DNA of 64,000 nucleotides, taken from the NCBI GenBank assembly GCA_002777825.1, contig MEIR01000089.1, positions 25,562 through 89,561 of the forward strand, written 5' to 3'. The position numbers and the translations under genes are program-made. This stretch comes from Snodgrassella alvi. GTDB taxonomy: Bacteria > Pseudomonadota > Gammaproteobacteria > Burkholderiales > Neisseriaceae. This document shows positions 4,029-35,089 of the stretch, one piece after another (position 1 is the stretch's first letter; every line of letters begins with the position of its first letter). The notes beneath the pieces are model-generated. The model saw nothing but the letters and a program-made list of their open reading frames with translations. It searched no databases and was not told the origin of the DNA.

Positions 4029-4134
4029 AGGTATTCCAACCAATCCCGCATATCAGCCCGGTATGTCATCGCTTTATCCCTGAAAGACAAAGCAATGGCA
4101 TACCGGGCTGTTTGGATAAGTGTAGTGTATTGTT

Positions 4135-5115
4135 TTAATGAGTATCCGGCTGCTGTCTGGTTTTCTGCCATGAAGCAAGTATGGCAATCAGTAAGGCACT
4201 GAACACTACTGCCAGTGAAGCAAAAGAAGGAATATGCCACCACTTGGCAACCAGCATTTTGCCGCCAATAAAAGTTAATACCACCGCCAGCCCGTATTTG
4301 AGATAGATAAATTTTTCTACCACATTGGCCAGCAAAAAGTACATCGCGCGCAAACCCAGTACCGCAAGAATATTGGAAGTAAAAACAATAAACGGATCGG
4401 TGGTTACCGCAAATACAGCCGGAATGCTGTCAACGGCAAACACCACATCGCTTAATTCAATCACTACCAAAGTAAGCAGCAAGGGAGTAGCCATGCGCTG
4501 GCCATTTTCAACAGTAAAAAATTTCTCCCGGTTCAACTGCTCACTAACACGCATATGCCGGTGCAGCCAGTGCACCAGTGGATTATCAGCCAAGCCTTTA
4601 TCCTCAGTTTTTTCCGGTAGCATCAGCTTAATACCACTATAAAGCAGAAATACGCCAAACAGATACAGTACCCACTCAAAGCGGCTGACCAGTACCGCAC
4701 CTAAAGCCACCATAATGGCGCGCAGAACAATCGCCCCCAGCACCCCAAAAAGTAAAACCCGATGCTGATATTCAGCCGGTACCTTAAAATAACTGAATAT
4801 CAATACAAATACGAAAATATTGTCGACTGATAGCGATTTTTCCAGCACATAACCTGTGAGAAAATCCATTACCGAATCCGCAGCTACTTCCGAACCAAGC
4901 GCAGGATTATGTGCCAGTTCAAAATACAGCCAGGCAGCAAATCCCAGAGAAACAGCAATCCATACAGTTGTCCACAGCAGGGCTTCTTTTGTACTGACAC
5001 GATGTACACCCTCTTTTTTCAGCGTGAACATATCAATCGTAATCATAACAATCACAATGGCGATAAATACGCCGTAAAATAAGGGTGTACCTACTGAATT
5101 CAGTTGTGGTTGCAT
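4135..5115 (-). CDS. TerC-family integral membrane protein (Alx-like)
   Basis: 326 aa, multi-TM, conserved TerC motifs (LSVDNIFVFVLIF..., ELSDVVFAVDSIPAV). Confidence 0.85.
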   Translation of the reverse strand: MQPQLNSVGTPLFYGVFIAIVIVMITIDMFTLKKEGVHRVSTKEALLWTTVWIAVSLGFAAWLYFELAHNPALGSEVAADSVMDFLTGYVLEKSLSVDNIFVFVLIFSYFKVPAEYQHRVLLFGVLGAIVLRAIMVALGAVLVSRFEWVLYLFGVFLLYSGIKLMLPEKTEDKGLADNPLVHWLHRHMRVSEQLNREKFFTVENGQRMATPLLLTLVVIELSDVVFAVDSIPAVFAVTTDPFIVFTSNILAVLGLRAMYFLLANVVEKFIYLKYGLAVVLTFIGGKMLVAKWWHIPSFASLAVVFSALLIAILASWQKTRQQPDTH

Positions 5116-22023: not shown

Positions 22024-25000
22024 TTAAATTTCGCCACCTATGCCTTTAAACTTCTCCACTAGCTCAACAATTTTCTGGTATACCTTTTGTTTTTTGGGCA
22101 AATATTGCGGATTAAGCGGGCTCATTTTGGGCAAGACTTCGTTCAGTTCCGTGCCGTTGTCAGTAGCATATTCACGCCTTAATGAGGATGCAATATAACG
22201 TTTAGCAGCAGCTTCATTTAAATTTTCATCACCAATTAATGTCTTAACCTCAGCCTGTTGCTGCTGTTGGGCATACTGGTAAAAGGCATCAATCATACTG
22301 GCTTTATCAGCAATAGTATTTAAATCGGTATGTTGAATAAATTCAATAACCAATTCCTCTTTGGCACGATAGCCTAAACTGGAGCGGATTAAGCGCTGTG
22401 CATCTTCAACAATGACTTGTTTATTCTTATCTTGCTTGTTCTGCTCAAAAATTAACTCCAGAATATAATCCAAATTGATTTCTTGCGATTTTAATAAATC
22501 CACCTCAAAAACCACATCATCCCAATCTATGGTTAGCTGCTCCTGTTCTTCAGCGGCTTTTTGTCTATACAGCCAGTCACGAATATCATGGTAAGTTGAG
22601 CGGTAATTCTGGATCGCTCTTTCTGTTGGTATCTTAATCTTTTGCAACCGTTCAAAAGCTTCATCTGAAACATAATACTGCGCTTTAAACTGTTCGACTG
22701 CTTGTTTATCTGTAGTATCCAGCTGTTGCAATGTCTTTAAAGCGATATATTCATCATAATTTTGCAATGCATTATCGGCACGTAAATACTGGCCAAATAA
22801 TTTAATAAACGCTTTTTTATCTTTTTCAGTAATAATCTGATCCGGATGAGGAAAACATTGCTGTAGCTCAGCCACAATAGCTAAATATCCGCTATGGATT
22901 TCACCGGAAATCTCATCGGTGTAACCCTGCATATGTTCCTCATAACTTTTTTCTAATACCACATCCTGAGTATTTCTTTGGCCAAATAGTTTGATGGCGG
23001 CAATAGTAGCTGGTTCTAAATCACGAAATGCCACAATATTACCAAACGCTTTAGTGTCATCGTAGATGCGATTGGTGCGTGAAAAGGCTTGGATTAAGCC
23101 ATGAAAACGTAAGTTTTTATCGACAAATAGCGTATTGAGGGTTGGCGCATCAAAGCCGGTTAGAAACATACCCACCACGATTAATAAATCAATTTCCTGC
23201 TTTTTAACGCGCAAAGATAAATCACGGTAATAATTCTGAAATTGCCCGCTGCTAACATCATAGTTGGATCTGAACATTTGATTATAATCATCAATCGCAG
23301 AAGCTAAAAATTCTTTCGCACTTTGATTCAACGCATTGGTTTCAAAGCTTTCATCAGCAATACCGCCTGCAGGGTCTTGTTGCTCATTAGCAGCAAAGGA
23401 AAAGATAGTAGCAATTTTCAATGGTTTACTGGATGATTGTTGCAGCTTTTTTAACGACTCATAATACAGCTTTGCCGCGTCCACACTGCTCACGGCAAAC
23501 ATAGCATTGAATCCTGTACCGTTACCATTTAAGCGGTGTGTTTTCTGGTTAAATTTGTTCAGAATATATTGGCTGATTTGCTCAATTCGTTTCGGATGCA
23601 GTAATGCTTGCTTATTTTCAGCGGCACTGAGTTTCTCCAGATTTTGCTCACATTCAATCGCTTTAAAATGCGGGCGTACATCATTGTAGTCGACTTTAAA
23701 TTTAAGTACTTTTTCATCGCGAATAGCGTCGGTAATTAAATAGCTATGCAACTCACGCCCGAATACCTTGGCAGTAGTTTGCTCGCCAAACGCATTAGCG
23801 TCCAGAATTGGCGTGCCGGTGAAACCAAATTGATAGTATTTTTTAAACTTTTTCTTAATATTTTTTTGTGCTTCGCCAAATTGTGAGCGATGTGCTTCAT
23901 CAAAAATAAACACGACCTGTTTATTATAGATCGCTAAATCATCCTTAGCTTTTATCAGATTATTGAGTTTTTGAATGGTGGTGACAATAATCTTATTATC
24001 CTGTTTTTCAATATTGCGCTCCAGTCCGGCAGTACTATCGGAACCATTGACACTGTCTTTTGAGAATTTCTGATATTCTTTCATGGTTTGATAATCCAGA
24101 TCCTTACGATCCACCACAAAAAACACTTTATCAATAAATTCCAGCTCGGTGGCCAGACGCGCTGCTTTAAAGCTGGTGAGAGTTTTTCCTGAGCCGGTGG
24201 TGTGCCAGATAAAGCCGCCACTATGTAAGCTACTCCAGTTTTTGGCCTGATAAGCACTGATAATCTGCCATAAAATCCGTTCGGTTGCCGCAATCTGGTA
24301 AGGGCGCATAATCAATAAAGTATCATTGATATCCAGAACGGAGTAAGTGATTAAAACACTTAACAGCACACGGCTGGCAAAAAAAGTGGCGGTAAAATCT
24401 TTTAAGTCTTTAATTGGTTCGTTTTCAACATTCGCCCAGTTTATGGTGAAATCAAAACTGGCCTTATCCCGTTTGGTGGTATTGGCAAAATACCGGGTAT
24501 CGGTACCGTTTGAAATCACAAATAACTGTAGATATTTAAACAGGGAATTGTCCTGATTAAAACTCTCTTTACTGTAGCGATGAACTTGACCAAACGCTTC
24601 ACGAATGGCAAGGCCACGTTTTTTAAGCTCCACATGTACTAAAGGCAGGCCATTAACTAAGATGGTAACATCGTAGCGATTAGCATAATTACCGGTTTGC
24701 TGAAACTGGCGAATCACCTGTAATTTATTGTTGCTGAGGTTTTTTTTATCGAGCAGATAAATATTCTGAATATGCCCATCATCAAACACAAAATCGTAGA
24801 TATGATTATGGTGAATTTTACGGCTTTTATCGACCATCGATTCATTCGGTTTATCCAGATACTCTAATACAAATCGCTGCCATTCCTCATCGCTAAACTG
24901 CATATTATTGAGCGTTTGCAACTGCACCCGAATATTGGCCAACAATTTCTGCTGATTATTCAGCTCAGGCAGATATTCATATCCTTGACGGCATAAATCC

Positions 25001-25125
25001 TGAATCAATTCGTTTTCTAATTCATTTTCCGTTTGATACGCTGCCGCCGGCTCTTCAAGCTTGGTGTAGTTATCTAAAATAATATAGTGATCAGTTTCGG
25101 CAATCGGGGTTGTGTAATTGACCAT
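22024..25125 (-). CDS. hsdR: Type I restriction enzyme R subunit (HsdR)
   Basis: 1033 aa; SF2 helicase motifs incl. Walker A TGSGKT and DEAH box ([10 protein letters not shown]); operon with hsdM/hsdS. Confidence 0.9.
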
Positions 25126-25128
25126 CGT

Positions 25129-26271
25129 CTATTCCTCCTCCTTCTCGTAAAAATTGTAATTTTCGAGTAAATGATTCAGTAAAAAGGCAACTATCTTTTT
25201 TTCAGGTTCGGAAGGCTCGGGCACCATTTCATTGGATAAGGTTGAATGACTGGTAAAATTGATTATGCGGGTTAAATATACTTCTCTATCATCAGGCAAC
25301 AAGTCTGACCAATGCCGATAGCCTAAAAAACAGGCGGTTTTTTCATACAAGTTACGTAATAGGGTAAAATGATATTTTTCAATTTTATTTTCCTCAATCG
25401 CTTGTTGCAGCAACTGCTTTAAATACAGATGATAGGAAAAACTGTGGTTTGAATCGCCTTTTTTGCCCTCTAATTCAAAATAGCCATCTGCCAATCGTCT
25501 TAGAATATAACCGTTTTTTAATCCTAACTCATTATAAAGTACATTATAAAACAGTGGATTATGGGTAGTGATGATAAATTTAATGTCAGATTCATTGGAT
25601 TTGATTAATTGGGCAATATCTACTGCCAATTGAATCAAATGATTCTCATCTAATGAGCTTACCGGATCATCAATAAAAATATAGCGTAATTGGTCAAATT
25701 CATTAGTAGAACGCTCGCTTTTTTCCGCAATATTGCGCTCGGCAATCACCAAACTAATCAAGGTGAAAAAAATACTCCAAATTAAGTTATTTTCTTCCCC
25801 CTTGGAGATTTTAATATTAGCAATACGCTGATCATTACCCGCTGCGAGCGAAAAAGTAACAGCGGAAAAATCCTCATTGAAATGCGGCGTCAGGTTTTGC
25901 TGAGTATACGATTGGAAGTAACGAGCAATATTTTGCTCCTGCCCTTGCTCTTTCAGAATCCAGTCCGTAAATGAATTGGGTTGTATGCTTAGCTGATGCT
26001 CACCTTGCTGATATTGATCGTTATTCCAGACAAATAAATCCTCGGTAAATGCGTTATAGTAAAGAATTTTATGCCGTGTTAAGGCTCCACTGTTTTCTTT
26101 ATCCGCTTTATCCTGCGATACAATAAACTCTTTAAACGCTTGCGATAAACGTGTTTTACCGGTGCCATTAAAAGCATAAATCAATTGGGCTTTGTTTCCC
26201 TTTTTCCCTTTTTGGGTGCTTTGGGCGTTTCTATCAATCTGCTCAGCAATATTTATCAGTGTATTATTCAT
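25129..26271 (-). CDS. ABC/Rad50-like P-loop ATPase embedded in the Type I R-M operon; PrrC/RloC-like anticodon-nuclease candidate
   Basis: Walker A AFNGTGKTRLS near N-terminus, Walker B + D-loop IFIDDPVSSLDENH, H-loop TTHN; occupies the prrC position between hsdS and hsdR. Confidence 0.5.
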   Translation of the reverse strand: MNNTLINIAEQIDRNAQSTQKGKKGNKAQLIYAFNGTGKTRLSQAFKEFIVSQDKADKENSGALTRHKILYYNAFTEDLFVWNNDQYQQGEHQLSIQPNSFTDWILKEQGQEQNIARYFQSYTQQNLTPHFNEDFSAVTFSLAAGNDQRIANIKISKGEENNLIWSIFFTLISLVIAERNIAEKSERSTNEFDQLRYIFIDDPVSSLDENHLIQLAVDIAQLIKSNESDIKFIITTHNPLFYNVLYNELGLKNGYILRRLADGYFELEGKKGDSNHSFSYHLYLKQLLQQAIEENKIEKYHFTLLRNLYEKTACFLGYRHWSDLLPDDREVYLTRIINFTSHSTLSNEMVPEPSEPEKKIVAFLLNHLLENYNFYEKEEE

Positions 26272-26288
26272 ATTCTGATTGTCTTGTG

Positions 26289-27533
26289 TTATTTATCTTC
26301 TACCTTAGGAAAGTTCAATAATAAATTACGATAGTACTCGTACTGTTTTTGGCGTAATTCAATCTCACGCGGTAAACCCTCGGTGATTGAATTAGTGAGT
26401 ACATCGAATTTATCTAGGATTTTGACAATACGGTCTTGTTCCTCGAGGGAGGGGATGGGCAAGCGATATTTAAGAATAGCTTCTTTATTTCCACGTGGCA
26501 TTTTTGCGCCTTTAGAATGTTGCATATTGTATTCAAAAAAATTATCATTTGCTAAGATATGATATAAATATCTGTAGGTTAACAGATTATTTTTTAGACG
26601 AATGACTAAAACATCACCATTAGTGCCTCCAGAAGAATCTGCCTGCCAAATTTTTTTTAAGTACGGACGAATATTTCCAATTAAAATATCATTGGTGAGA
26701 TATTCTGTAAAACTTCCTTCTTTAGGCACGTGATTTGAATCAGTTTTTCCTGCTCGGTTTTGTAATAAATTATCAACACCTACATAATTTTTTTCATTAA
26801 GTTTATCAAAGCTGATTCGAGTATTTGAATAATTAGCTACTTCGCCTAAAGCCTTCCACTCAACCTCATCCTCTTTAAAGGTCAACAATTGATCACGATA
26901 ATAGTTGTATTGTTTTTTCCGTGCTGTAAGCTCTGCTGTAAGCTCTGCTGTAAGCTCTGCTGTAAGCTCTGTAAATATGTCTAAGATACGGGTAATTTCA
27001 GTCTGTATGTGTAGCGGAGGAATAGGAATTTGAATTTTTTTTAATTCACTCATTGGTAAACTAATAACTGGCGAACCAACAATTTTTTTACTATATTCAT
27101 TTACTATATATTTTGAATTAAATAAATGAGATAAGTATTTTGAAACAACTATTTCTTGAACAGGTTTTATTACATAGACTCCTTCTTTGATATTCCAATT
27201 TTTAGGTTTTTCATCAATAACAGCTGTTTTTCCTACCGTCCCTGTCCCCGAAAATAAGATGTCGCCAGCCTCTAAATTCGAGCGGTTGTTTATAAGCTCT
27301 AAAGCTTGGTTATTAATTTTATCAGTCTTATCAAGGAATACTATCTTTCCATTCTGAATTTCTCGAACAGTTATATAGAAATTCATAGCATCGGATGTAT
27401 TCAACTTAAAGTTATTTCGTGGATTTAGCCCCGTTTTCAAAGATTTTATTACTTCCCCTAATGGTTTCCACTCAACCGCTACCCCATCAAGTAATTTAGC
27501 GATACTATTGTGCATATTTAAATTGTTACTCAT
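26289..27533 (-). CDS. hsdS: Type I R-M specificity subunit (HsdS) with two target-recognition domains and a TAEL-repeat central conserved region
   Basis: 414 aa; duplicated TRD architecture; central ...ELTAELTAELTAELTA...; conserved C-terminal YEYYRNLLL-type motif. Confidence 0.85.
   Translation of the reverse strand: MSNNLNMHNSIAKLLDGVAVEWKPLGEVIKSLKTGLNPRNNFKLNTSDAMNFYITVREIQNGKIVFLDKTDKINNQALELINNRSNLEAGDILFSGTGTVGKTAVIDEKPKNWNIKEGVYVIKPVQEIVVSKYLSHLFNSKYIVNEYSKKIVGSPVISLPMSELKKIQIPIPPLHIQTEITRILDIFTELTAELTAELTAELTARKKQYNYYRDQLLTFKEDEVEWKALGEVANYSNTRISFDKLNEKNYVGVDNLLQNRAGKTDSNHVPKEGSFTEYLTNDILIGNIRPYLKKIWQADSSGGTNGDVLVIRLKNNLLTYRYLYHILANDNFFEYNMQHSKGAKMPRGNKEAILKYRLPIPSLEEQDRIVKILDKFDVLTNSITEGLPREIELRQKQYEYYRNLLLNFPKVEDK
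26923..26970 (-). repeat. Perfect 4x 12-bp tandem repeat (GCTGTAAGCTCT) encoding TAEL repeats in the HsdS central spacer
   Basis: four identical in-frame 12-mers read directly from sequence. Confidence 0.95.
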
Positions 27534-27733
27534 TTCTTGCGACTTTCCTGTTTCGCTTTGTTCGCTAATGCATTGATGGTTTCCAGATAAGATATTTCTA
27601 CCCCACTAGAAATATTTCGTGAACTATGTTGTTGAACTGTTCGGATTTTCCGAACAGTTGCTTTTTTAAAGTAAGCATCAACACGAACTTTTTGATTATT
27701 AACATGATAAATTTGAATGTGATTATTGCTCAT
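27530..27733 (-). CDS. Small hypothetical protein translationally coupled between hsdM and hsdS
   Basis: 67 aa; start overlaps hsdM stop and stop overlaps hsdS start (ATGA-type overlaps); basic C-terminus. Confidence 0.4.
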
Positions 27734-29274
27734 GCTTCAATCTCCGCCACAATTGCATCAATTTGGGCGCGTAAGCTATCAATTTTAGCTACAGTGTCTT
27801 TTAATTCAGCATTAAGCTGGGTGATATCAATAATTTCGCGGGTATCTTCGGCTTCCACATATGAGCTCACCGATAAATTATAGTCATTGTCGGCAATGGT
27901 TTGATTAGCAACCGATTTGGCAAAATATTCGACGTCTTGCTTGCTGGCAAATACTTGCACAATTTCTTCAATATGCTTATCAGTTAGGACATTATTATTG
28001 GTTTCTTTTTTAAACAGTTTGCTGGCATCAATAAATTGCGTGGTTCTGACGGTTTTGTTTTTCGCCAGCACCAAAATATTAACCGCAATCGAGGTACCAT
28101 AAAATAAGTTTGGTGCCAGTGATATCACGGTTTCAACAAAATTATTATCGATTAAATATTTACGAATTTTTTGTTCGGCGCCACCACGATAAAAAATACC
28201 CGGAAAGGTAACAATCGCCGCCCGCCCTCGCTCAGACAAGTAACTTAATGAATGCAGAATAAAGGCAAAATCGGCTTTTGATTTTGGCGCAAGTATGCCA
28301 GCGGGGGCATATCGTTCATCATTGATTAAGGTTGGGTTATCACTGCCAATCCATTTAATTGAATAAGGGGGATTGGAAACAATGGCATCAAATGGCTTTT
28401 CGTTGCCAAATTTAGGATTAAGTAGTGTATCCCCCAAGACAATTTCAAATTTATCGTAGTTGATGTTGTGTAAAAACATATTCATACGGGCAAGATTATA
28501 GGTGGTATGGTTAATTTCCTGACCATAGAATCCGTCCTCAATGATATGCTTATCAAACTGTTTTTTTGCCTGTAATAATAAAGAGCCTGAGCCTGCCGCT
28601 GGGTCATAGATTTTATTGATCTTTGTTTGATTATGTAAGGCTAATTGTGCGATTAATTTGGATACATTCGGCGGAGTGAAAAATTCTCCTCCTGATTTAC
28701 CGGCTTTAGAAGCATAATTAGAGATTAAATATTCATAAGCATCACCAAACACATCAATATGGTTATCTTCAAATTGCCCAAAATCCAGCTCGGCAATGCC
28801 ATTAAGTACGGCGGCTAGCCGTTTGTTTTTATCGGCTACGGTATTGCCTAAGCGGTTGCTGGTGGTGTCAAAATCGGCAAATAACCCTTTAATATCGCTT
28901 TCGGAAGGATAGCCGATAGCTGAACTTTCAATCGCATTAAAAATATTGGCCAAGTGGGTATTTAAGTCTTTATTGGTATTGGCCTCGGCAACGGTATGGC
29001 AGAATAATTGACTTGGATAGATAAAATAGCCTTTGGATTTAATGGCATCCTGTTTGATTTCGTCGGTGATAGCATCATCGGGAATTGATTTATAATCAAT
29101 ACTCTCGTCGCCTGCTTGCATATAATCAGCAAAGTTTTCACTAATAAAGCGATAAAATAAGGTGCCAAGTACATATTGTTTGAAATCCCAGCCATCAACC
29201 GCGCCTCTTACTTCGTCGGCAATTTTCCATATTTGGCGTTGTAATTGGTCTCGTTGCTGGATACTGATGGCCAT
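27730..29274 (-). CDS. hsdM: Type I R-M N6-adenine DNA methyltransferase subunit (HsdM)
   Basis: 514 aa; N-terminal HsdM_N domain, AdoMet motif [10 protein letters not shown] and catalytic NPPY ([11 protein letters not shown]). Confidence 0.9.
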
Positions 29275-29821: not shown

Positions 29822-29837
29822 ATCACTTTATTACATC

Positions 29838-29866
29838 AAAAAAGATGGCATAGCCATCCTTTTTCA
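29838..29866 (+). terminator. Diverged copy of gyrB terminator (AAAAAAGATGGCATAGCCATCCTTTTT)
   Basis: same hairpin as 20746-20775 with 2 substitutions; right-end direct repeat of the island. Confidence 0.7.
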
Positions 29867-29936: not shown

Positions 29937-31163
29937 TCAGCCTTTAACACAGATAACCTGACGTAACTGATGTCTGATTTCTACCAGTTCCTGCTGTGCC
30001 TGCATTACGGCATCGATATCTTTGTACGCCATGGGAATTTCGTCGATTACTTCTGTATCCTTACGACACTCTACATGGGCGGTAGCCTGCATCTGATCGG
30101 CAACGGTGAATCTCCTTTTGGCTTCGGCGCGGCTCATTACCCGCCCTGCACCATGCGAACAGGAATGAAAACTCTCGGTGTTTCCTAAACCGCGCACGAT
30201 ATAACTTTTTGCGCCCATTGAGCCCGGTATAATTCCCAGTTCGCCCTCGCGTGCAGAAACGGCACCTTTACGGGTAACAAAAACATTGTGGCCAAAATGC
30301 CGCTCTTTTTGTACATAGTTATGATGACAGTTTATTGTTTGCAGATGCGTGGTAAACGGCACATCAATCACTTGGCGTAATGCAGCAATGGTGTTGTGCA
30401 TCATTACTTCACGGTTTACGCGGGCAAAATCCTGCGCCCAATGCACAGCTTCCAGATAATCACGACAATATTCGGTGCCTTCGGCAAAATACGCCAGATC
30501 GTTATTGGGCAGGTAGGTATCAATAAAATACTTTTTCATTTCTTTTTGTGCCAGTTCACTGAAATATTTACCAATGGCATGGCCAATACCACGGGAACCA
30601 CTATGCAGCATAATCCATACCTGATCGGTTTCATCCAGACAAACTTCAATAAAATGATTACCGCTGCCAAGTGTTCCCAGATGATGCAAGCTATTGGCTT
30701 TTAAAAAGCGCGGATATTTGCTGGTGAGTTTTTCAAATCCTGGCAATAGCTGCTGCCAGTACTCTTGTACAATCGGCGGCGGATTATGCCAGCTACCTTT
30801 ATCATATTTTTTATTACCCGGAGTAGAACCATGCGGTACTGCCTTTTCAATCGCCAGCCGCAATGGCATCAGGTCTTCCGGCAAATCCTGCGCGGTAAGT
30901 GATAACTGCACCGCCATCATGCCACAGCCGATATCTACGCCAACCGCAGCAGGTATAACTGCACCAGTAGTAGGAATCACGCTACCTATGGTAGAGCCTC
31001 GTCCCAGATGCACATCCGGCATTACAGCAATATGCTTAAAAATAAAGGGCAGTTCTGCGGTTTGCAGCAATTGTGTTTTGGCGATATCTTCTACTGGTAC
31101 GCCTTTAGTCCACATTTTTACCGGACGGGTTTTATCTTCTTTTAATACTTCATATTCTTGCAT
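29937..31163 (-). CDS. rtcB: RNA-splicing ligase RtcB (3'-phosphate/5'-OH RNA ligase)
   Basis: 408 aa; conserved RtcB metal/GTP-binding motifs (HxGxG region SGNHF, CHHNY, GAGR). Confidence 0.9.
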   Translation of the reverse strand: MQEYEVLKEDKTRPVKMWTKGVPVEDIAKTQLLQTAELPFIFKHIAVMPDVHLGRGSTIGSVIPTTGAVIPAAVGVDIGCGMMAVQLSLTAQDLPEDLMPLRLAIEKAVPHGSTPGNKKYDKGSWHNPPPIVQEYWQQLLPGFEKLTSKYPRFLKANSLHHLGTLGSGNHFIEVCLDETDQVWIMLHSGSRGIGHAIGKYFSELAQKEMKKYFIDTYLPNNDLAYFAEGTEYCRDYLEAVHWAQDFARVNREVMMHNTIAALRQVIDVPFTTHLQTINCHHNYVQKERHFGHNVFVTRKGAVSAREGELGIIPGSMGAKSYIVRGLGNTESFHSCSHGAGRVMSRAEAKRRFTVADQMQATAHVECRKDTEVIDEIPMAYKDIDAVMQAQQELVEIRHQLRQVICVKG

Positions 31164-31213: not shown

Positions 31214-32794
31214 CTATTTTGCCTGAATGTTAATCAAACCATGTAATAACTGATCCAGACCGCCCACAACTGAAATTTTGTCGATGCGTTCAGCAATGCG
31301 TTCCAGTGTTTCCATTTCTTTCAAGCGTAAAGCCACTGGGTTATTTTCCATTACTCTGGCGGTATTCAGCAGGGAGCGGGTGGCGGAAGTTTCTTCGCGG
31401 CGGCGGATTACATTGGCCTGTGCTGCTTTTTCAGCCTCCACTACCTGCGCCAGTATGGTTTTCATGTCGCCCGGCAGAATAATGTCTTTCACACCTACGC
31501 TAATGGTTTCTATTCCGTAACCAGTCATATTTGCCTGCATATGCGCATTGATAACTTCATCAATCACATCCTTGTTTTCCAGCAATTCATCCAGCGTGCG
31601 GGTACCAATTGCTTCGCGTAAGGCAAATTGCAATTGCCGGTACAAGAGTTCCACAGGCTGGGCAGCTTTGGCGAAAGCAGTTAACACATCGGTATAGCAC
31701 CAGTTGGCTACTAGGTTGATACGCAGATTTACTTTGTCGCGGGTTAGTATTTCCTGCCCGGATATTTCTACCGTCTGCAAGCGTGTATCGACGATTTCAA
31801 CACTGATTTCGCGGTTAAAGCGCCAGTAAGCGGTGATGCCGGCATCCAGTAGCTGTTGTACTTGACCATTTACTTTTAATACACCAACATGATAAGCCGG
31901 TACCTGCGCAATCAGTATGCTGCTGTCTCCAATCACTTCTTTCTTACGTAATTTAGGCTGCAATAACTGCTGCACCATTTGTTCAGATAGCTGATAGCCA
32001 TCAGCCAGTTCTATGGTCTGCATGTGCTGCTTGCTGTTATTCTGCCAATATAATCGTTTTGTTCCCGGCGGCAGGATTTCCACCAGTAAATCATCTTCAA
32101 AGCGTAAACCGGCCTGATTGGCACCTACCTGCATCTGTACACAGTATTGCTGCATCTGCTCCGGTGCATTCTGCTCAATCGTGGCGGCCAGCAGGTCATC
32201 GATACGGTTATCCTGTAATTTGAATTTTCCCAGTACAAGCTTATGTTTGAATTCGCACAAGCCAATTACAGATGTGGGCGGAATAATCTGCACAAACTGG
32301 TTATCCACAAACAGAGTACCAATCTGTTCATCCACAAAATAATGCAGTTTTACATTGTCTATACCGGTAATCAGTCTGGCGGTATTTTTGGCCTGTATCA
32401 GTTCCAGTGCCACTTCATCCGGCAAACGGTAGCCCTGCTGCAAAGTCACTTTTTTAATCGATTGCGCTTTATAACTCTGCCAGTAAAGTGCTTTGGTGGC
32501 CGGCATAATGATCTCTACCAGTATGTCTTCTTCATAACGCAAAGCAATTTCATTATCCGCCACATGGACATAAAGACAGTATTTTTCTACTAGTTGCGGA
32601 TAAAAATTAAGCAGTTTTTCGGCGATGGCCGGCTCGATTTCAGTATCGGCCAGATCCACTAGATAATAGGTTATTGCTGAAAAGGGATCCCAGAAAGTAT
32701 GGCGGCCAGCGCTGACAATGGTATTTATCTCATCCCGTTTATTAACAACAGCCAGCTCACCTTTTTTTACATCGATTATGGTCAACATATTCAT
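31214..32794 (-). CDS. SPFH/band-7 (stomatin-like) domain protein with triplicated N-terminal SPFH-start-like module; co-operonic with rtcB
   Basis: C-terminal ...GIETISVGVKDIILPGDMKTILAQVVEAEKAAQANVIRRRE...NPVALRLKEMETLERIA matches stomatin/HflC core; three ~140-aa N-terminal repeats; SD GGAGA before MNMLTIID. Confidence 0.7.
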   Translation of the reverse strand: MNMLTIIDVKKGELAVVNKRDEINTIVSAGRHTFWDPFSAITYYLVDLADTEIEPAIAEKLLNFYPQLVEKYCLYVHVADNEIALRYEEDILVEIIMPATKALYWQSYKAQSIKKVTLQQGYRLPDEVALELIQAKNTARLITGIDNVKLHYFVDEQIGTLFVDNQFVQIIPPTSVIGLCEFKHKLVLGKFKLQDNRIDDLLAATIEQNAPEQMQQYCVQMQVGANQAGLRFEDDLLVEILPPGTKRLYWQNNSKQHMQTIELADGYQLSEQMVQQLLQPKLRKKEVIGDSSILIAQVPAYHVGVLKVNGQVQQLLDAGITAYWRFNREISVEIVDTRLQTVEISGQEILTRDKVNLRINLVANWCYTDVLTAFAKAAQPVELLYRQLQFALREAIGTRTLDELLENKDVIDEVINAHMQANMTGYGIETISVGVKDIILPGDMKTILAQVVEAEKAAQANVIRRREETSATRSLLNTARVMENNPVALRLKEMETLERIAERIDKISVVGGLDQLLHGLINIQAK

Positions 32795-33066
32795 TCTCCA
32801 GTCTATTGCAGCCAGCAAACAAGATGAACACAATCAAACGGATTAAGTAACGGAATAACAGGGGAAAGATTCATCATCATAACCTAATTATCGCCTGATT
32901 ATGATTAATAAATATTTTGCCTGCTATCCGGTTTTTTTACCCAAACAAAACAGCCATGGCTGAGTTTGCCCGGTTAACCGGTTTTTCCTGTGTCTAAGCT
33001 TTTACTACTGTGCTTATTCCCATTTACTGGCTGGTATTGCTTAATACGACAAGTATTACTATGTGA

Positions 33067-33139
33067 TTTTTGAAACAGGAATCGAACCTGTCACAGATTG
33101 GTTTGGTGCCAATTGCTCTATCCAGTGAGCTTTTCAAAA
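33067..33139 (-). ncRNA. tRNA-like element (cloverleaf with Trp-type CCA anticodon but A8, A33 and no encoded CCA) in leader of the rtcB operon
   Basis: minus strand: TTTTGAA-AA-GCTC-ACTGGATA-GAGC-A-ATTGG-CACCAAA-CCAAT-CTGTG-ACAGG-TTCGATT-CCTGT-TTCAAAA-A; perfect 7-bp acceptor, 5-bp anticodon and T stems; canonical T-loop. Confidence 0.55.
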
Positions 33140-33283
33140 ATACTCCGTGAAAGGGAGGTGTCTTGCATACTCAGGAATACATGTTGATAATGCAAATAGA
33201 TTAACCTTGCGGCGAATCCGGCAGCATTCGCTATGCACCTGACTGCCATATCAGACAGCATGTATTACAGACATAGGCTTTAT

Positions 33284-33299
33284 TGCAATTACTGTACCA
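33284..33299 (-). promoter_or_regulatory. Candidate sigma54 (-24/-12) promoter for the tRNA-like/SPFH/rtcB operon
   Basis: minus strand TGGTAC-AGTAA-TTGCA vs consensus TGGCAC-N5-TTGCW with exact GG-GC spacing; adjacent to divergent rtcR; AT-rich UAS region upstream. Confidence 0.35.
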
Positions 33300-33460: not shown

Positions 33461-35089
33461 ATGAACAGGAAAAACGTTGTATTCGGTTTTTTGGGCAATG
33501 TGCTTGACCAGCGCGGTAAAGGCAGAAAACGCTGGGGGCGCTGGCGGCCAACAGTTGATGTCTGTAATCATCCGGAATTGCCGGTATCTCGCTTTGAACT
33601 GCTTTATCACGTCAATGATAACGAGTTACTGGCTGAAATTATTCAGGATATTAAAACCATTGCCCCGGATACGCAGGTTAATCCGGTTGCAGTACATATA
33701 CATGACCCATGGGATTTTGAGGAGGTGTATACCTGTTTACTGGATTTAGCCAAAAGCTATCAATTTGATTATGAACAGGAGAATTATTATTTAAATATCA
33801 CTACCGGCACGCACGTTATGCAGATTTGCTGGTTTTTGCTGGCAGAATCACGCTTTTATCCGGCCAGACTGCTGCAATTATCGCCAACCAAAGGGGTAGC
33901 ACAGCCAGAAACGGTGTTAACTGAGCCGGCAGAGCATCAACAGCTATGCAGCCGCGGACAAATCAATATCATTGACCTGAATCTGAACCGCTACGACCAG
34001 ATTCTGACCCGCTTTCAGCAATACGCCGGCCAAGCTACTGAATTACTCAAATCCGGCATTGCCACCAGAAACCCGCATTACAATCAGCTAATTACTGAAA
34101 TAGAACAGGTAGCCAGCCGCTCGCATGCGCCTATCCTGCTATGCGGCCCTACCGGCGCCGGTAAATCTTTTCTTGCACGGCAAATTTACCAGCTTAAGCT
34201 GAATCAGCATCAGATAAGCGGCCAGTTTGTGGAAATTAACTGCGCTACTCTTACCGGTGATAATGCCATGTCCACTTTATTTGGTCATAGCAAAGGGGCT
34301 TATACGGGTGCCAGCATGGCCAGAAGCGGCCTGCTCAAACAGGCTGATAACGGCCTTTTGTTTCTGGATGAAATCGGCGAACTGGGATTAGATGAACAGG
34401 CTATCCTGCTCAAAGCCATTGAAGAAAAACATTTTTATCCGTTGGGCTCGGATAAACTGGTTTCCAGCCAGTTCCAGCTCATTGCCGGCACCAATAAAGA
34501 CTTAAAACAGGCAATTGCCTGTGGTGCATTCAGGGAAGATTTATACGCACGGATTAATTTATGGAGCTATCAACTGCCCGGGCTGGCAGAACGTAAAGAA
34601 GATATTGAACCAAATATTGATTTTGAGCTGGCACGCTATGCTAAGGAATATGGCACTATGCCACGCTTTAATCAGCAATCCAGAACCCGCTATGTAAATT
34701 TTGCCACTTCGGCTGCTGCACGATGGACGGGCAATTTCCGTGAGCTCACCGCTTCCATTACCCGCATGGCTACACTGGCCACGCAGGGTAATATCACTTT
34801 GACACAGGTTGAAGACGAAATTCAGCGCTTACAGCAACACTGGCAGCAGACAACACCCGCCGATGCACTGATTCCGGTTGAAATTGATGAATTCGACCGC
34901 TATCAGCTAGAAAAGGTGATTGAAGTATGCCGCAAAAGCCGAACTTTATCCGAGGCCGGCCGCTATCTGTTTGCGGTATCACGGGCACAGAAACAGCGTG
35001 CCAATGATGCCGACAGGCTGAAAAAATATCTGGCCAAGTTTGATTTAAGCTGGGAGCAGATAAAAGATAGTGCCTGTAGCAGCGATTAA
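33461..35089 (+). CDS. rtcR: Sigma54-dependent transcriptional activator RtcR (N-terminal CARF domain, AAA+ sigma54-interaction domain, C-terminal HTH)
   Basis: N-terminus MNRKNVVFGFLGNVLD matches RtcR CARF start; Walker A GPTGAGKS, GAFTGA-like GAFREDLYARINLW motif. Confidence 0.9.
   Translation: MNRKNVVFGFLGNVLDQRGKGRKRWGRWRPTVDVCNHPELPVSRFELLYHVNDNELLAEIIQDIKTIAPDTQVNPVAVHIHDPWDFEEVYTCLLDLAKSYQFDYEQENYYLNITTGTHVMQICWFLLAESRFYPARLLQLSPTKGVAQPETVLTEPAEHQQLCSRGQINIIDLNLNRYDQILTRFQQYAGQATELLKSGIATRNPHYNQLITEIEQVASRSHAPILLCGPTGAGKSFLARQIYQLKLNQHQISGQFVEINCATLTGDNAMSTLFGHSKGAYTGASMARSGLLKQADNGLLFLDEIGELGLDEQAILLKAIEEKHFYPLGSDKLVSSQFQLIAGTNKDLKQAIACGAFREDLYARINLWSYQLPGLAERKEDIEPNIDFELARYAKEYGTMPRFNQQSRTRYVNFATSAAARWTGNFRELTASITRMATLATQGNITLTQVEDEIQRLQQHWQQTTPADALIPVEIDEFDRYQLEKVIEVCRKSRTLSEAGRYLFAVSRAQKQRANDADRLKKYLAKFDLSWEQIKDSACSSD

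Follow-up and report, generated by a model that had tools for sequence, protein, structure and literature searches.

A membrane-less Band-7 protein encoded between a tRNA-like RNA and rtcB in Snodgrassella alvi, a possible scaffold for RNA repair

Snodgrassella alvi is a bee-gut bacterium. We analyzed a window of 64,000 nucleotides from its genome (contig MEIR01000089.1, positions 25,562 to 89,561 of the forward strand; all coordinates below count from the first letter of the window). The original prediction placed a gene for an SPFH/stomatin-domain protein at 31214-32794 and left its strand unstated; the open reading frame spans exactly 31214-32794 and lies on the minus strand. Translation from the ATG at 32794 gives a product of 526 aa. 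The start is likely the ATG at 32788, giving 524 aa, because this codon has the better Shine-Dalgarno spacing (GGAG at 32799-32796, 7 nt) and because the 97% identical protein of Snodgrassella communis, named 'slipin family protein', is 524 aa long. Downstream on the same strand lies rtcB (29937-31163; Pfam RtcB, E 1.9e-127), which encodes a 3'-phosphate/5'-OH RNA ligase. The gap between the two genes is 50 nt and holds no terminator by our terminator scan, bearing out the claim that the Band-7 gene is directly upstream of rtcB. The ligase gene is the last of the operon, with no rtcA after it at this locus, and is followed by an intrinsic-terminator-like hairpin read from the sequence (GATGGC-TAT-GCCATC then TTTTTT; 29837-29858, minus strand). 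The scan also reported this rtcB-distal palindromic stem on the plus strand.

Divergent from the operon is rtcR (33461-35089, plus strand), which encodes a CARF / sigma-54 AAA+ / HTH activator identified by NCBIfam NF038308 (E 1e-229) and by Pfam RtcR and Sigma54_activat. The regulatory context had thus been called correctly. With hsdM, rtcR and rtcB make up the called neighbors of the Band-7 gene.

A sigma-54 (-24/-12) promoter-like site, TGGTACAGTAATTGCA, was found by pattern matching at 33284-33299 on the minus strand, where it may drive the operon. The predicted transcription start is followed, some 133 nt further downstream, by a tRNA-like RNA of the b7a-tRNA type (33065-33140, minus strand), which is detected by ARAGORN, by Rfam (tRNA, 49 bits, E 2e-8) and by a custom covariance model, R1 (75 bits). 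The original prediction had missed this element, the defining partner of the module discussed below. In a three-way alignment, the rest of the ~480-nt leader (32838-33240, minus strand) contains blocks conserved between Snodgrassella and Gilliamella at 33223-33240, 33171-33191, 32918-32939 and 32838-32864, and the leader folds better than its shuffles (z = -4.5). From this layout, the tRNA-like RNA, the Band-7 gene and rtcB would share one sigma-54 transcript.

ARAGORN labels the element 'tRNA-Trp(CCA)', but it lacks the canonical tRNA set of a 7-nt anticodon loop, a constant anticodon, a stable 7-bp acceptor stem and a CCA end. In the Snodgrassella element the acceptor stem is all A-U and no CCA is encoded; across loci, only 4-5 acceptor pairs are conserved and ARAGORN reports many different or impossible anticodons. 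The element does form a cloverleaf with conserved D and T loops. Among orthologous elements this cloverleaf covaries (compensatory changes in 12 of 18 pairs) and keeps invariant D and T loops; the 'anticodon' loops, by contrast, differ between loci, many of them being GNRA or UUCG tetraloops. The comparison points to a structural mimic of tRNA and not a decoder. A long stem of the Y-RNA type around the element was rejected, as flank-to-flank pairs averaged 5.0, under the 7.4 of shuffled controls.

The predicted C-terminal Band-7/stomatin core is confirmed. Pfam PF01145 (Band-7) covers residues 297-468 at 103.1 bits (cut-off 23.6, E 2.3e-29), and stomatins are the closest relatives of the C-terminal 230 aa in sequence and fold, the best solved ones being PH1511 (E 2.6e-18) and human stomatin (STOM; 1e-16). 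The SPFH domain proper (31472-31918, minus strand) consists of a first beta unit (31778-31918) and an alpha/beta core (31472-31777), and this core fold is followed by a long helix. In the secondary structure of the model the helix takes up residues 442-507; together with a near-invariant tail, ...IDKISVVGGLDQLLHGL, it is encoded at 31217-31471 (minus strand) and holds most of the family's invariant columns. This segment can be aligned to the C-terminus of human stomatin, ...NSTIVFPLPIDMLQGII, and the part of stomatin that forms its oligomeric cap has a counterpart here. To our knowledge, every structurally characterized SPFH protein self-assembles into a ring or cage, and by analogy with other SPFH proteins the helix and tail may act in oligomerization.

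SPFH proteins usually act at membranes and are usually viewed as membrane scaffolds. Here, as the original prediction had it, there is no transmembrane segment: the Kyte-Doolittle 19-residue mean peaks at 1.17, and the N-terminus is an array of beta units in place of the hydrophobic hairpin or transmembrane anchor of stomatins and slipins. The protein further differs from stomatins in its ~290 extra N-terminal residues, in its RNA-repair context and in having no NfeD-type gene among the called neighbors (rtcR, rtcB, hsdM). It could still be an ordinary SPFH protein that organizes membrane microdomains or regulates a protease, or else an abortive-infection effector, and sit beside rtcB by chance; the habits of the family, the NCBI name 'slipin family protein', the JGI name of a homolog ('regulator of protease activity HflC') and a restriction-modification/PrrC cassette in the region all lean that way. 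However, besides the missing hydrophobic segment and NfeD-type partner, scores on the HflK/HflC equivalogs are far under their cut-offs (TIGR01933, 31.8 bits vs 159; TIGR01932, 28 vs 134), and PADLOC matches neither the Band-7 protein nor RtcB. An order of rtcR and rtcB, or of other RNA-repair genes, that is conserved across beta- and gammaproteobacteria speaks against chance. We regard this explanation as highly improbable. With no PADLOC match, we also dropped the suggestion of the original prediction that the protein is a defense-type effector.

The N-terminal module had been described as triplicated, in three segments that each resemble the start of an SPFH domain. Repetition is real, as residues 48-144 align with residues 192-289 with a Smith-Waterman score of 182 (z = 29) that 0 of 300 shuffles reach; self-BLASTP of the protein returned the identity match alone. 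The count differs, because AlphaFold models (monomer only; pLDDT 82.6 and 90.5) and unit HMMs resolve five successive five-stranded beta units, all encoded on the minus strand: u1 (aa 3-72, 32579-32788), u2 (aa 73-147, 32354-32578), u3 (aa 148-217, 32144-32353), u4 (aa 218-292, 31919-32143) and u5 (aa 293-339, 31778-31918), the last being the first beta unit of the SPFH domain. Units u1 and u2, each followed by helices, form module A (32354-32788), and u3 and u4 form module B (31919-32353), a tandem duplicate of module A. The N-terminus is thus a two-unit module of ~145 aa present twice, followed by the SPFH domain's own first beta unit. The three segments correspond to u1+u2, u3+u4 and u5, and the third is the start of the SPFH domain itself.

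Comparisons between units place their origin in that domain. With E-values scaled to a 121-sequence database, u2 matches u4 at 1e-22 to 1e-25, u3 matches u5 at 1e-18, and u1 matches u3 and u5 at about 1e-5. Where homologs have duplicated recently, u3 and u5 share 63-80% identity, which agrees with the original view that the repeats copy the start of an SPFH domain. The number of units varies across the family from one to about nine, the upper end being a 924-aa member with up to about nine N-terminal units. Homologs of the common length, 375-381 aa, lack module B; the N-terminal extension of the Snodgrassella protein amounts to four extra units, or about 290 residues. Pfam did not assign the N-terminal region to any unrelated known domain, such as TROVE or vWA, and its pieces gave only sub-threshold matches to DUF7193 and DUF1392. 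An N-terminal profile run against PDB sequences found nothing meaningful (best E 2.5, to an unrelated CoA transferase). The protein is acidic (pI 5.25), as is every N-terminal unit (pI 4.7-5.7), so that net charge does not suggest direct RNA binding by the repeats.

A small beta-repeat array, an SPFH-like 'shoulder' and a long helix are also the parts of the eukaryotic major vault protein (MVP), a likeness at the level of architecture only. MVP has nine repeats, compared with the four extra units of the Snodgrassella protein, and each of the two is paired with a small structured noncoding RNA, vault RNA for MVP and b7a-tRNA for the Band-7 protein. Foldseek alignments of the full-length model to MVP span 620-664 columns (E 1e-11 to 1e-8). 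One could then imagine a strict bacterial mini-vault, a true MVP homolog forming a closed, two-halved shell around the RNA and RtcB, and the longest family members, which reach about nine N-terminal units, would fit such a shell. However, a model of the N-terminus by itself reaches only E 0.3 against MVP R1-R7 (probability 0.08), and where it matches locally with confidence, the partner is the first beta part of stomatin and erlin. Searched against the PDB, it gave no significant global match, with generic multi-domain beta arrays at the top (probability <=0.44), and for this reason we dropped the claim that the units are MVP repeats. Even with E allowed up to 10, neither Vault nor MVP_shoulder of Pfam appeared in the query, its N-terminal pieces or 37 members of the family, and MVP chains were absent from the PDB hits of the N-terminal profile. 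As the repeats are copies of the protein's own SPFH start, the similarity to MVP may be architectural convergence, and true homology seems to us quite unlikely.

The surroundings of the gene recur in a set of 80 related genomes, with rtcR and a sigma-54 promoter followed by the tRNA-like RNA, the Band-7 gene and rtcB. On the same strand as the Band-7 gene, rtcB follows in 59 of 72 evaluable loci; a divergent rtcR lies upstream in 66 of 76. Of 81 upstream regions, 68 have a site matching TGGCAC-N5-TNGCA at 9 or more of 11 positions, at a distance of 310-610 nt from the Band-7 ATG. The site always precedes the tRNA-like element and is missing exactly where rtcR is missing. Where rtcB is absent or separated, the neighbor is a different RNA-repair module, either the RlaP nucleotidyltransferase (PF10127, E 3e-96) or a phosphatase of the PNKP type. 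The tRNA-like element lies 256-402 nt upstream in 66 of the 80 loci and went undetected in 14, which means that it is no strict requirement of the protein; Rfam found no known RNA in the leaders of five loci that lack it. Plasmids searched by tblastn with the E. coli homolog yielded nothing useful.

The original prediction called a gene of this kind in an RNA-repair operon unexpected. This was wrong, because the association is recurrent and already published. A Band-7 / b7a-tRNA / RtcB module was predicted by comparative genomics by Burroughs and Aravind (NAR, 2016), as cited in 10.1101/312249 and PMC13404743. The same work is credited there with the hypothesis of a scaffold, with which the predicted 'scaffold for RtcB' coincides. 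The b7a-tRNA is described as a noncoding RNA without experimental validation (10.1101/312249), and no biochemical test of the module is reported in the literature we examined. Judged by its gene content and order, the Snodgrassella locus is an instance of this known association: as in the published module, Band-7 stands beside RtcB, with a predicted noncoding RNA that resembles tRNA and with RtcR/sigma-54 control, and nothing essential differs. The Snodgrassella copy departs from the usual b7a form in its duplicated N-terminal module (524-526 vs 375-381 aa), in the lack of rtcA and in an adjacent PrrC cassette.

Two known systems help to place the locus. PaFlo8 of Pseudomonas aeruginosa (PA14_60630 / PA4582) belongs to the same family and sits in the rtc locus; the 381-aa P. 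aeruginosa proteins are ~57% identical to the Snodgrassella protein over the shared part. PaFlo8 differs in having a single N-terminal module and an operon that also contains rtcA and PA4584. In related Pseudomonas loci the tRNA-like element comes as a tandem pair, unlike the single one of Snodgrassella. A mutant deleted for PaFlo8 had no phenotype when assayed for growth, virulence, motility, biofilm and oxidative stress, all of which are unrelated to RNA damage (PMC13086221). The second system is the Salmonella rsr-yrlBA-rtcBA operon, in which Ro60 (Rsr) and Y RNAs hold the place that the Band-7 protein and its noncoding RNA take in the b7a module. Ro60 and YrlA share with our pair the position in an RtcR-controlled RtcB operon and an RNA partner folded like a tRNA (PMC7790460, 10.1101/312249). 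They differ in that the Band-7 protein has no TROVE or vWA domain by Pfam and the RNA here is a stand-alone cloverleaf without the long stem of a Y RNA.

In this Snodgrassella lineage the anticodon nuclease PrrC (25129-26271), part of a type I restriction-modification cassette beside the operon, is encoded immediately downstream. This neighbor, with a tRNA-like RNA as the first product of an RtcR-dependent transcript, could fit a regulator or decoy, in which the tRNA mimic held by the Band-7 protein competes with tRNAs for an anticodon nuclease or tunes the RtcR signal. Such tuning might be the work of a sentinel, with the fragments of the cleaved mimic switching on the CARF domain, or of a sponge that silences the signal. 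We think this unlikely. With anticodon loops that vary widely and are often tetraloops, the mimics would make poor sentinels for anticodon-specific cleavage. Nor is PrrC a conserved part of the module, because PrrC and Hsd proteins were found in none of the 80 related loci; the adjacency is also missing in another Snodgrassella lineage whose Band-7 protein is 88% identical. A regulator or decoy would, moreover, leave the conserved cage-type C-terminus and the variable number of repeats unexplained.

Given the domain identity, the repeat anatomy, the missing membrane anchor, the covarying tRNA-like element and the conserved gene order and promoter, we favor, at a probability of roughly 0.55, a soluble oligomeric scaffold or cage that, together with the tRNA-like RNA, concentrates or restrains RtcB in RNA repair. 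RtcR is activated by tRNA halves ending in a 2',3'-cyclic phosphate (PMC7790460). In the model, RNA damage would activate RtcR, which would drive a single sigma-54 transcript encoding, in order, a stand-alone tRNA mimic, a membrane-less SPFH protein of the stomatin type and the RNA ligase RtcB. The SPFH protein would most likely self-assemble into a soluble ring or cage through its long C-terminal helix and stomatin-like tail, and extra copies of the first beta unit of its SPFH domain, stacked on one another, would lengthen the wall. Protein and tRNA-like RNA would then form a scaffold or compartment in which RtcB is concentrated or restrained while cleaved tRNA or rRNA is repaired. Oligomerization, RNA binding, RtcB binding and any effect on ligation are the conjectural parts of this scaffold model.

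A bolder form of the model, which we hold to be doubtful, is a soluble, vault-like nanocage whose wall height is set by the number of SPFH-start units and which encloses RtcB and a nuclease-resistant tRNA mimic, so compartmentalizing tRNA repair. If true, it would be a bacterial counterpart, and possibly the evolutionary source, of the eukaryotic vault particle, and in this Snodgrassella lineage it could also buffer self-damage from the neighboring PrrC.

For annotation, a 'slipin family protein' beside rtcB should be read as an RNA-repair component, and the ARAGORN 'tRNA-Trp' at 33065-33140 as a non-decoding tRNA-like element. More broadly, the locus presents a soluble branch of the SPFH family that is tied to RNA repair and has a tRNA mimic as its partner, a pair that parallels Ro60 and Y RNA in bacteria and the vault protein and vault RNA in eukaryotes. 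Natural variants with one, two or more wall modules could show how an SPFH cage serves an RNA ligase, and the bacterial module might in turn illuminate what vaults do.

The Band-7 gene lies on the minus strand at 31214–32794, encoding 526 amino acids when read from the ATG at 32794. This annotated-style start is 1 nt from a GGAG (32799–32796) that precedes a second ATG, at 32788, by a 7-nt spacer. Given this spacing and the 524 aa of its nearest homologue, the Snodgrassella communis protein (97% identical), ATG 32788 is the likelier start, and the protein probably begins MLTIIDV. The 97% identity also assigns the window to Snodgrassella, a genus of bee-gut Neisseriaceae. The stomatin-like C-terminal core of the original prediction was recovered as a Pfam Band_7/SPFH domain at aa 297–468 (E 2.3e-29), with stomatins as the nearest solved relatives (P. 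horikoshii PH1511, E 2.6e-18; human stomatin, 1e-16); the NCBIfam models for HflK and HflC scored far under their cut-offs. The protein is acidic (pI 5.25) and, as also predicted, contains no membrane-spanning hydrophobic stretch, the top 19-residue Kyte-Doolittle mean being 1.17.

A triplicated N-terminal module had also been proposed. The repeats are real: aa 48–144 align to aa 192–289 with a Smith-Waterman score of 182 (z = 29), equalled by 0 of 300 shuffles. The check suggested at the outset, AlphaFold modelling of the full-length protein (pLDDT 82.6) and of residues 1–292 alone (pLDDT 90.5, pTM 0.76), bears out a repeat architecture of five consecutive five-stranded beta units, u1 to u5 (aa 4–47, 73–117, 148–192, 218–262 and 293–336). 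One or two helices follow each of the first four units, the fifth leads directly into the SPFH alpha/beta core, and a 65-residue helix and short tail lie C-terminal to that core. Using per-unit HMMs, with E-values relating to a 121-sequence database, u2 matched u4 at 1e-22 to 1e-25, u3 matched u5 at 1e-18, and u1 matched u3 and u5 at ~1e-5. The protein therefore consists of two odd-even pairs (u1-u2 and u3-u4), then an odd unit, then the core; the proposed count of three does not hold, as the third "segment" is the start of the SPFH domain itself.

The two odd-even modules are 34% identical to one another in the window protein, 56–64% in Xenorhabdus-type proteins and 85% in the homologue P0044, and by these identities the age of the duplication varies among lineages. 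Because u3 and u5 are 63–80% identical in the younger duplications (Xenorhabdus-type proteins and P0044), the extra units are copies of the beta unit that opens the SPFH domain, together with an "even" unit. The commonest homologues (375–381 aa, including those of E. coli, Pseudomonas and Burkholderia) have the layout u1-u2-u5-core and those of 313–314 aa the layout u4-u5-core; four even units are found at 591 aa and three odd-even pairs at 724–744 aa. Searched as a profile, the N-terminal 292 aa matched 947 clusters (50% identity) in 1.84 billion proteins, the longest among the matches listed being 924 aa. The Band_7 domain was terminal in all seven proteins checked, including the five longest listed (637–924 aa), so proteins of this family may carry up to about nine units, and unit expansion looks recurrent.

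Short u4-u5-core forms include P0028 (Snodgrassella sp., 313 aa) and P0038 (Entomomonas moraniae, 314 aa). The Entomomonas chromosome carries 525-aa and 314-aa copies together, the 314-aa copy being closer to the window protein (79% vs 65% identity). The nearest two-module homologues occur in unrelated insect-gut bacteria: Gilliamella (loci L001 and L002), Entomomonas (P0022) and Neisseriaceae (P0027 and P0030). As Gilliamella, a gammaproteobacterium, shares 69% identity with the window in Band-7, 73% in RtcB and 73% in RtcR, the sequences suggest that the whole locus moved by horizontal transfer within the bee-gut community.

Repeat homology with the major vault protein (MVP) was considered and found no support in closer tests. 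Pfam searches of 37 family members, run to E 10, gave no Vault or MVP_shoulder match, the N-terminal sequence profile gave no MVP match, and the N-terminal model alone matched MVP R1–R7 at E 0.3 (probability 0.08). Where that model did match locally with confidence (probability 0.8–0.97), the partners were the opening beta portions of stomatin and erlin. The likeness to MVP is one of architecture only, and we conclude that this is a stomatin-type SPFH protein with vault-like architecture, its membership of the MVP family not being established. A strict mini-vault would share that architecture and sits poorly with these searches; we consider it improbable.

As predicted, the Band-7 gene is directly upstream of rtcB (29937–31163, minus; Pfam E 1.9e-127), on the same strand and across a 50-nt gap in which no terminator was found. 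A hairpin and T-run (29858–29837, minus) lie 3' of rtcB, and no rtcA is found downstream of it in the window. On the other side, a 666-nt intergenic region separates the Band-7 gene from divergent rtcR (33461–35089, plus; NF038308 E 1e-229). We read a sigma-54-type site, TGGTACAGTAATTGCA, at 33299–33284 (minus), and a tRNA-like element lies ~133 nt past the predicted start of transcription (33140–33065, minus; Rfam tRNA 49 bits, E 2e-8; ARAGORN "tRNA-Trp(CCA)") with an all-A-U acceptor stem and no encoded CCA. Predicted folding of the 478-nt leader is stronger than that of shuffled sequences (z = -4.5). Outside the element, leader blocks at 33223–33240, 33171–33191, 32918–32939 and 32838–32864 (minus) are kept between Snodgrassella and Gilliamella despite a Band-7 identity of just 69%, and might represent additional RNA structure or sites of regulation. 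A small hairpin directly 3' of the element in many loci, for example TGYCC-N5-6-GGRCAG (L004, L018, L020 and L052 included), has a window copy, TAATAC-TTGTC-GTATTA, at ~33040–33058 (minus), and may be a processing or stability signal.

Scanning one genome per species yielded at least 596 positive species, from which the best 80 loci were fetched. Of these, 59 of 72 evaluable loci have rtcB co-oriented with the Band-7 gene and no more than 1.5 kb downstream of it, and 66 of 76 have a divergent rtcR upstream. A covariance model trained on 41 tRNA-like elements placed one in 66 of 80 loci, always on the gene's strand and 256–402 nt (median 330) before the ATG. Upstream of the element, a TGGCAC-N5-TNGCA site (at least 9 of 11 matches) was present in 68 of 81 upstream regions, and the loci lacking it are exactly those lacking rtcR. 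Compensatory changes support 12 of 18 pairs of the consensus cloverleaf. The D and T loops do not vary, conservation in the acceptor stem is limited to 4–5 pairs, and the "anticodon" loops change from genome to genome, often being GAAA or UUCG tetraloops, which argues for a structural tRNA mimic rather than a decoding tRNA. A test for a Y-RNA-like long stem enclosing the element was negative.

Where rtcB is absent or displaced, another RNA-repair module is the neighbour. An RlaP nucleotidyltransferase (PF10127, E 3e-96) replaces it after the Band-7 gene in Enterobacterales, and a PNKP-type HAD phosphatase in Undibacterium (L049) or a treble-clef zinc protein in Pseudomonas (L018) is inserted between Band-7 and rtcB. 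This consistent gene syntax links the Band-7 protein with RNA repair and not with membranes. The Enterobacterales variants (L007, L008, L054, L059, L060 and others) have a shorter leader, with no tRNA-like element detected and no known RNA found by Rfam. Five Burkholderiales loci without rtcR and the sigma-54 site (L056, L057, L063, L073 and L076) carry, at about 4100–4850 in locus coordinates, a canonical tRNA array (Asp, Phe, Arg, Pro, His, Glu, Lys and others) that shortly precedes the tRNA-like element and Band-7. Ten Pseudomonas loci (L014, L018, L019, L026, L027, L030, L032, L034, L035 and L037) have two tandem tRNA-like elements before the Band-7 gene, the distal one being a distinct sequence type with a G+C-rich acceptor stem. 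In L083, whose Band-7 protein shares 77% identity with that of the window, the Band-7 gene and rtcB are both intact, and no rtcR was called within the 1.2-kb gap upstream of Band-7.

Directly downstream of rtcB is a type I restriction-modification cassette (22024–29274, minus): hsdM (27730–29274), hsdS (26289–27533), the anticodon nuclease gene prrC (25129–26271; PADLOC PrrC E 2e-141; Pfam AAA_13) and hsdR (22024–25125), with prrC between hsdS and hsdR. As established in the phage T4 / PrrC system, PrrC cleaves tRNA-Lys to leave 2',3'-cyclic phosphate and 5'-OH ends, which are RtcB substrates. The S. communis contig L081 has the same layout. In L084–L086, from a Snodgrassella lineage with 88%-identical Band-7, the cassette is absent and rtcB abuts gyrB-dnaN-dnaA, and PrrC was near the Band-7 locus in 0 of 80 other loci; because of these absences, we take the cassette to be a lineage-specific insertion between rtcB and gyrB, outside the module. 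A coincidental membrane or defence role, to which the SPFH fold or the PrrC neighbour might point, is very improbable beside the missing membrane-spanning stretch and the conserved gene order.

The locus is near-certainly the Band-7 / b7a-tRNA / RtcB module predicted by Burroughs & Aravind (2016, as cited in 10.1101/312249 and PMC13404743), and the original prediction was correct as an observation but incomplete. Where Wang et al. (10.1101/312249) treat the module, its tRNA-like RNA is given as predicted, without experimental validation. The P. aeruginosa homologue, PA4582 / PA14_60630 (PaFlo8), lies inside the rtc locus, and its deletion mutant was without phenotype when assayed for growth, virulence, motility, biofilm and oxidative stress; RNA damage is probed by none of these assays (PMC13086221, PMC8619066). 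What is added here is the precise layout of the repeats, their derivation from the start of the SPFH domain itself, recurrent unit expansion and the local PrrC neighbour.

Sequence analysis puts in hand the protein's anatomy, its missing membrane anchor, a tRNA mimic predicted to be co-transcribed, and putative RtcR / sigma-54 control. RtcR is activated by 5' tRNA halves with a 2',3'-cyclic phosphate end (PMC7790460). The RNA–protein pair might itself act as a regulator or decoy, as a tRNA mimic under RtcR could allow; we think this alternative unlikely. Stomatin, HflK/C, prohibitin, erlin, flotillin and MVP, whose structures are oligomeric assemblies, are all among the structural matches of the Band-7 protein, and its long C-terminal helix and tail, its most conserved part, align with the stomatin C-terminus. 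From these we infer that the protein would self-assemble through helix and tail. The beta units would then form an extended wall of the particle, which together with the tRNA mimic may scaffold or enclose RtcB during repair. We give the reading as a whole, the module with Band-7 as a scaffold or cage for RtcB, a probability of about 0.55, the cage or scaffold step being its uncertain part. Known so far on paper, the module has a bearing on the unsolved question of what vault-like SPFH cages do.
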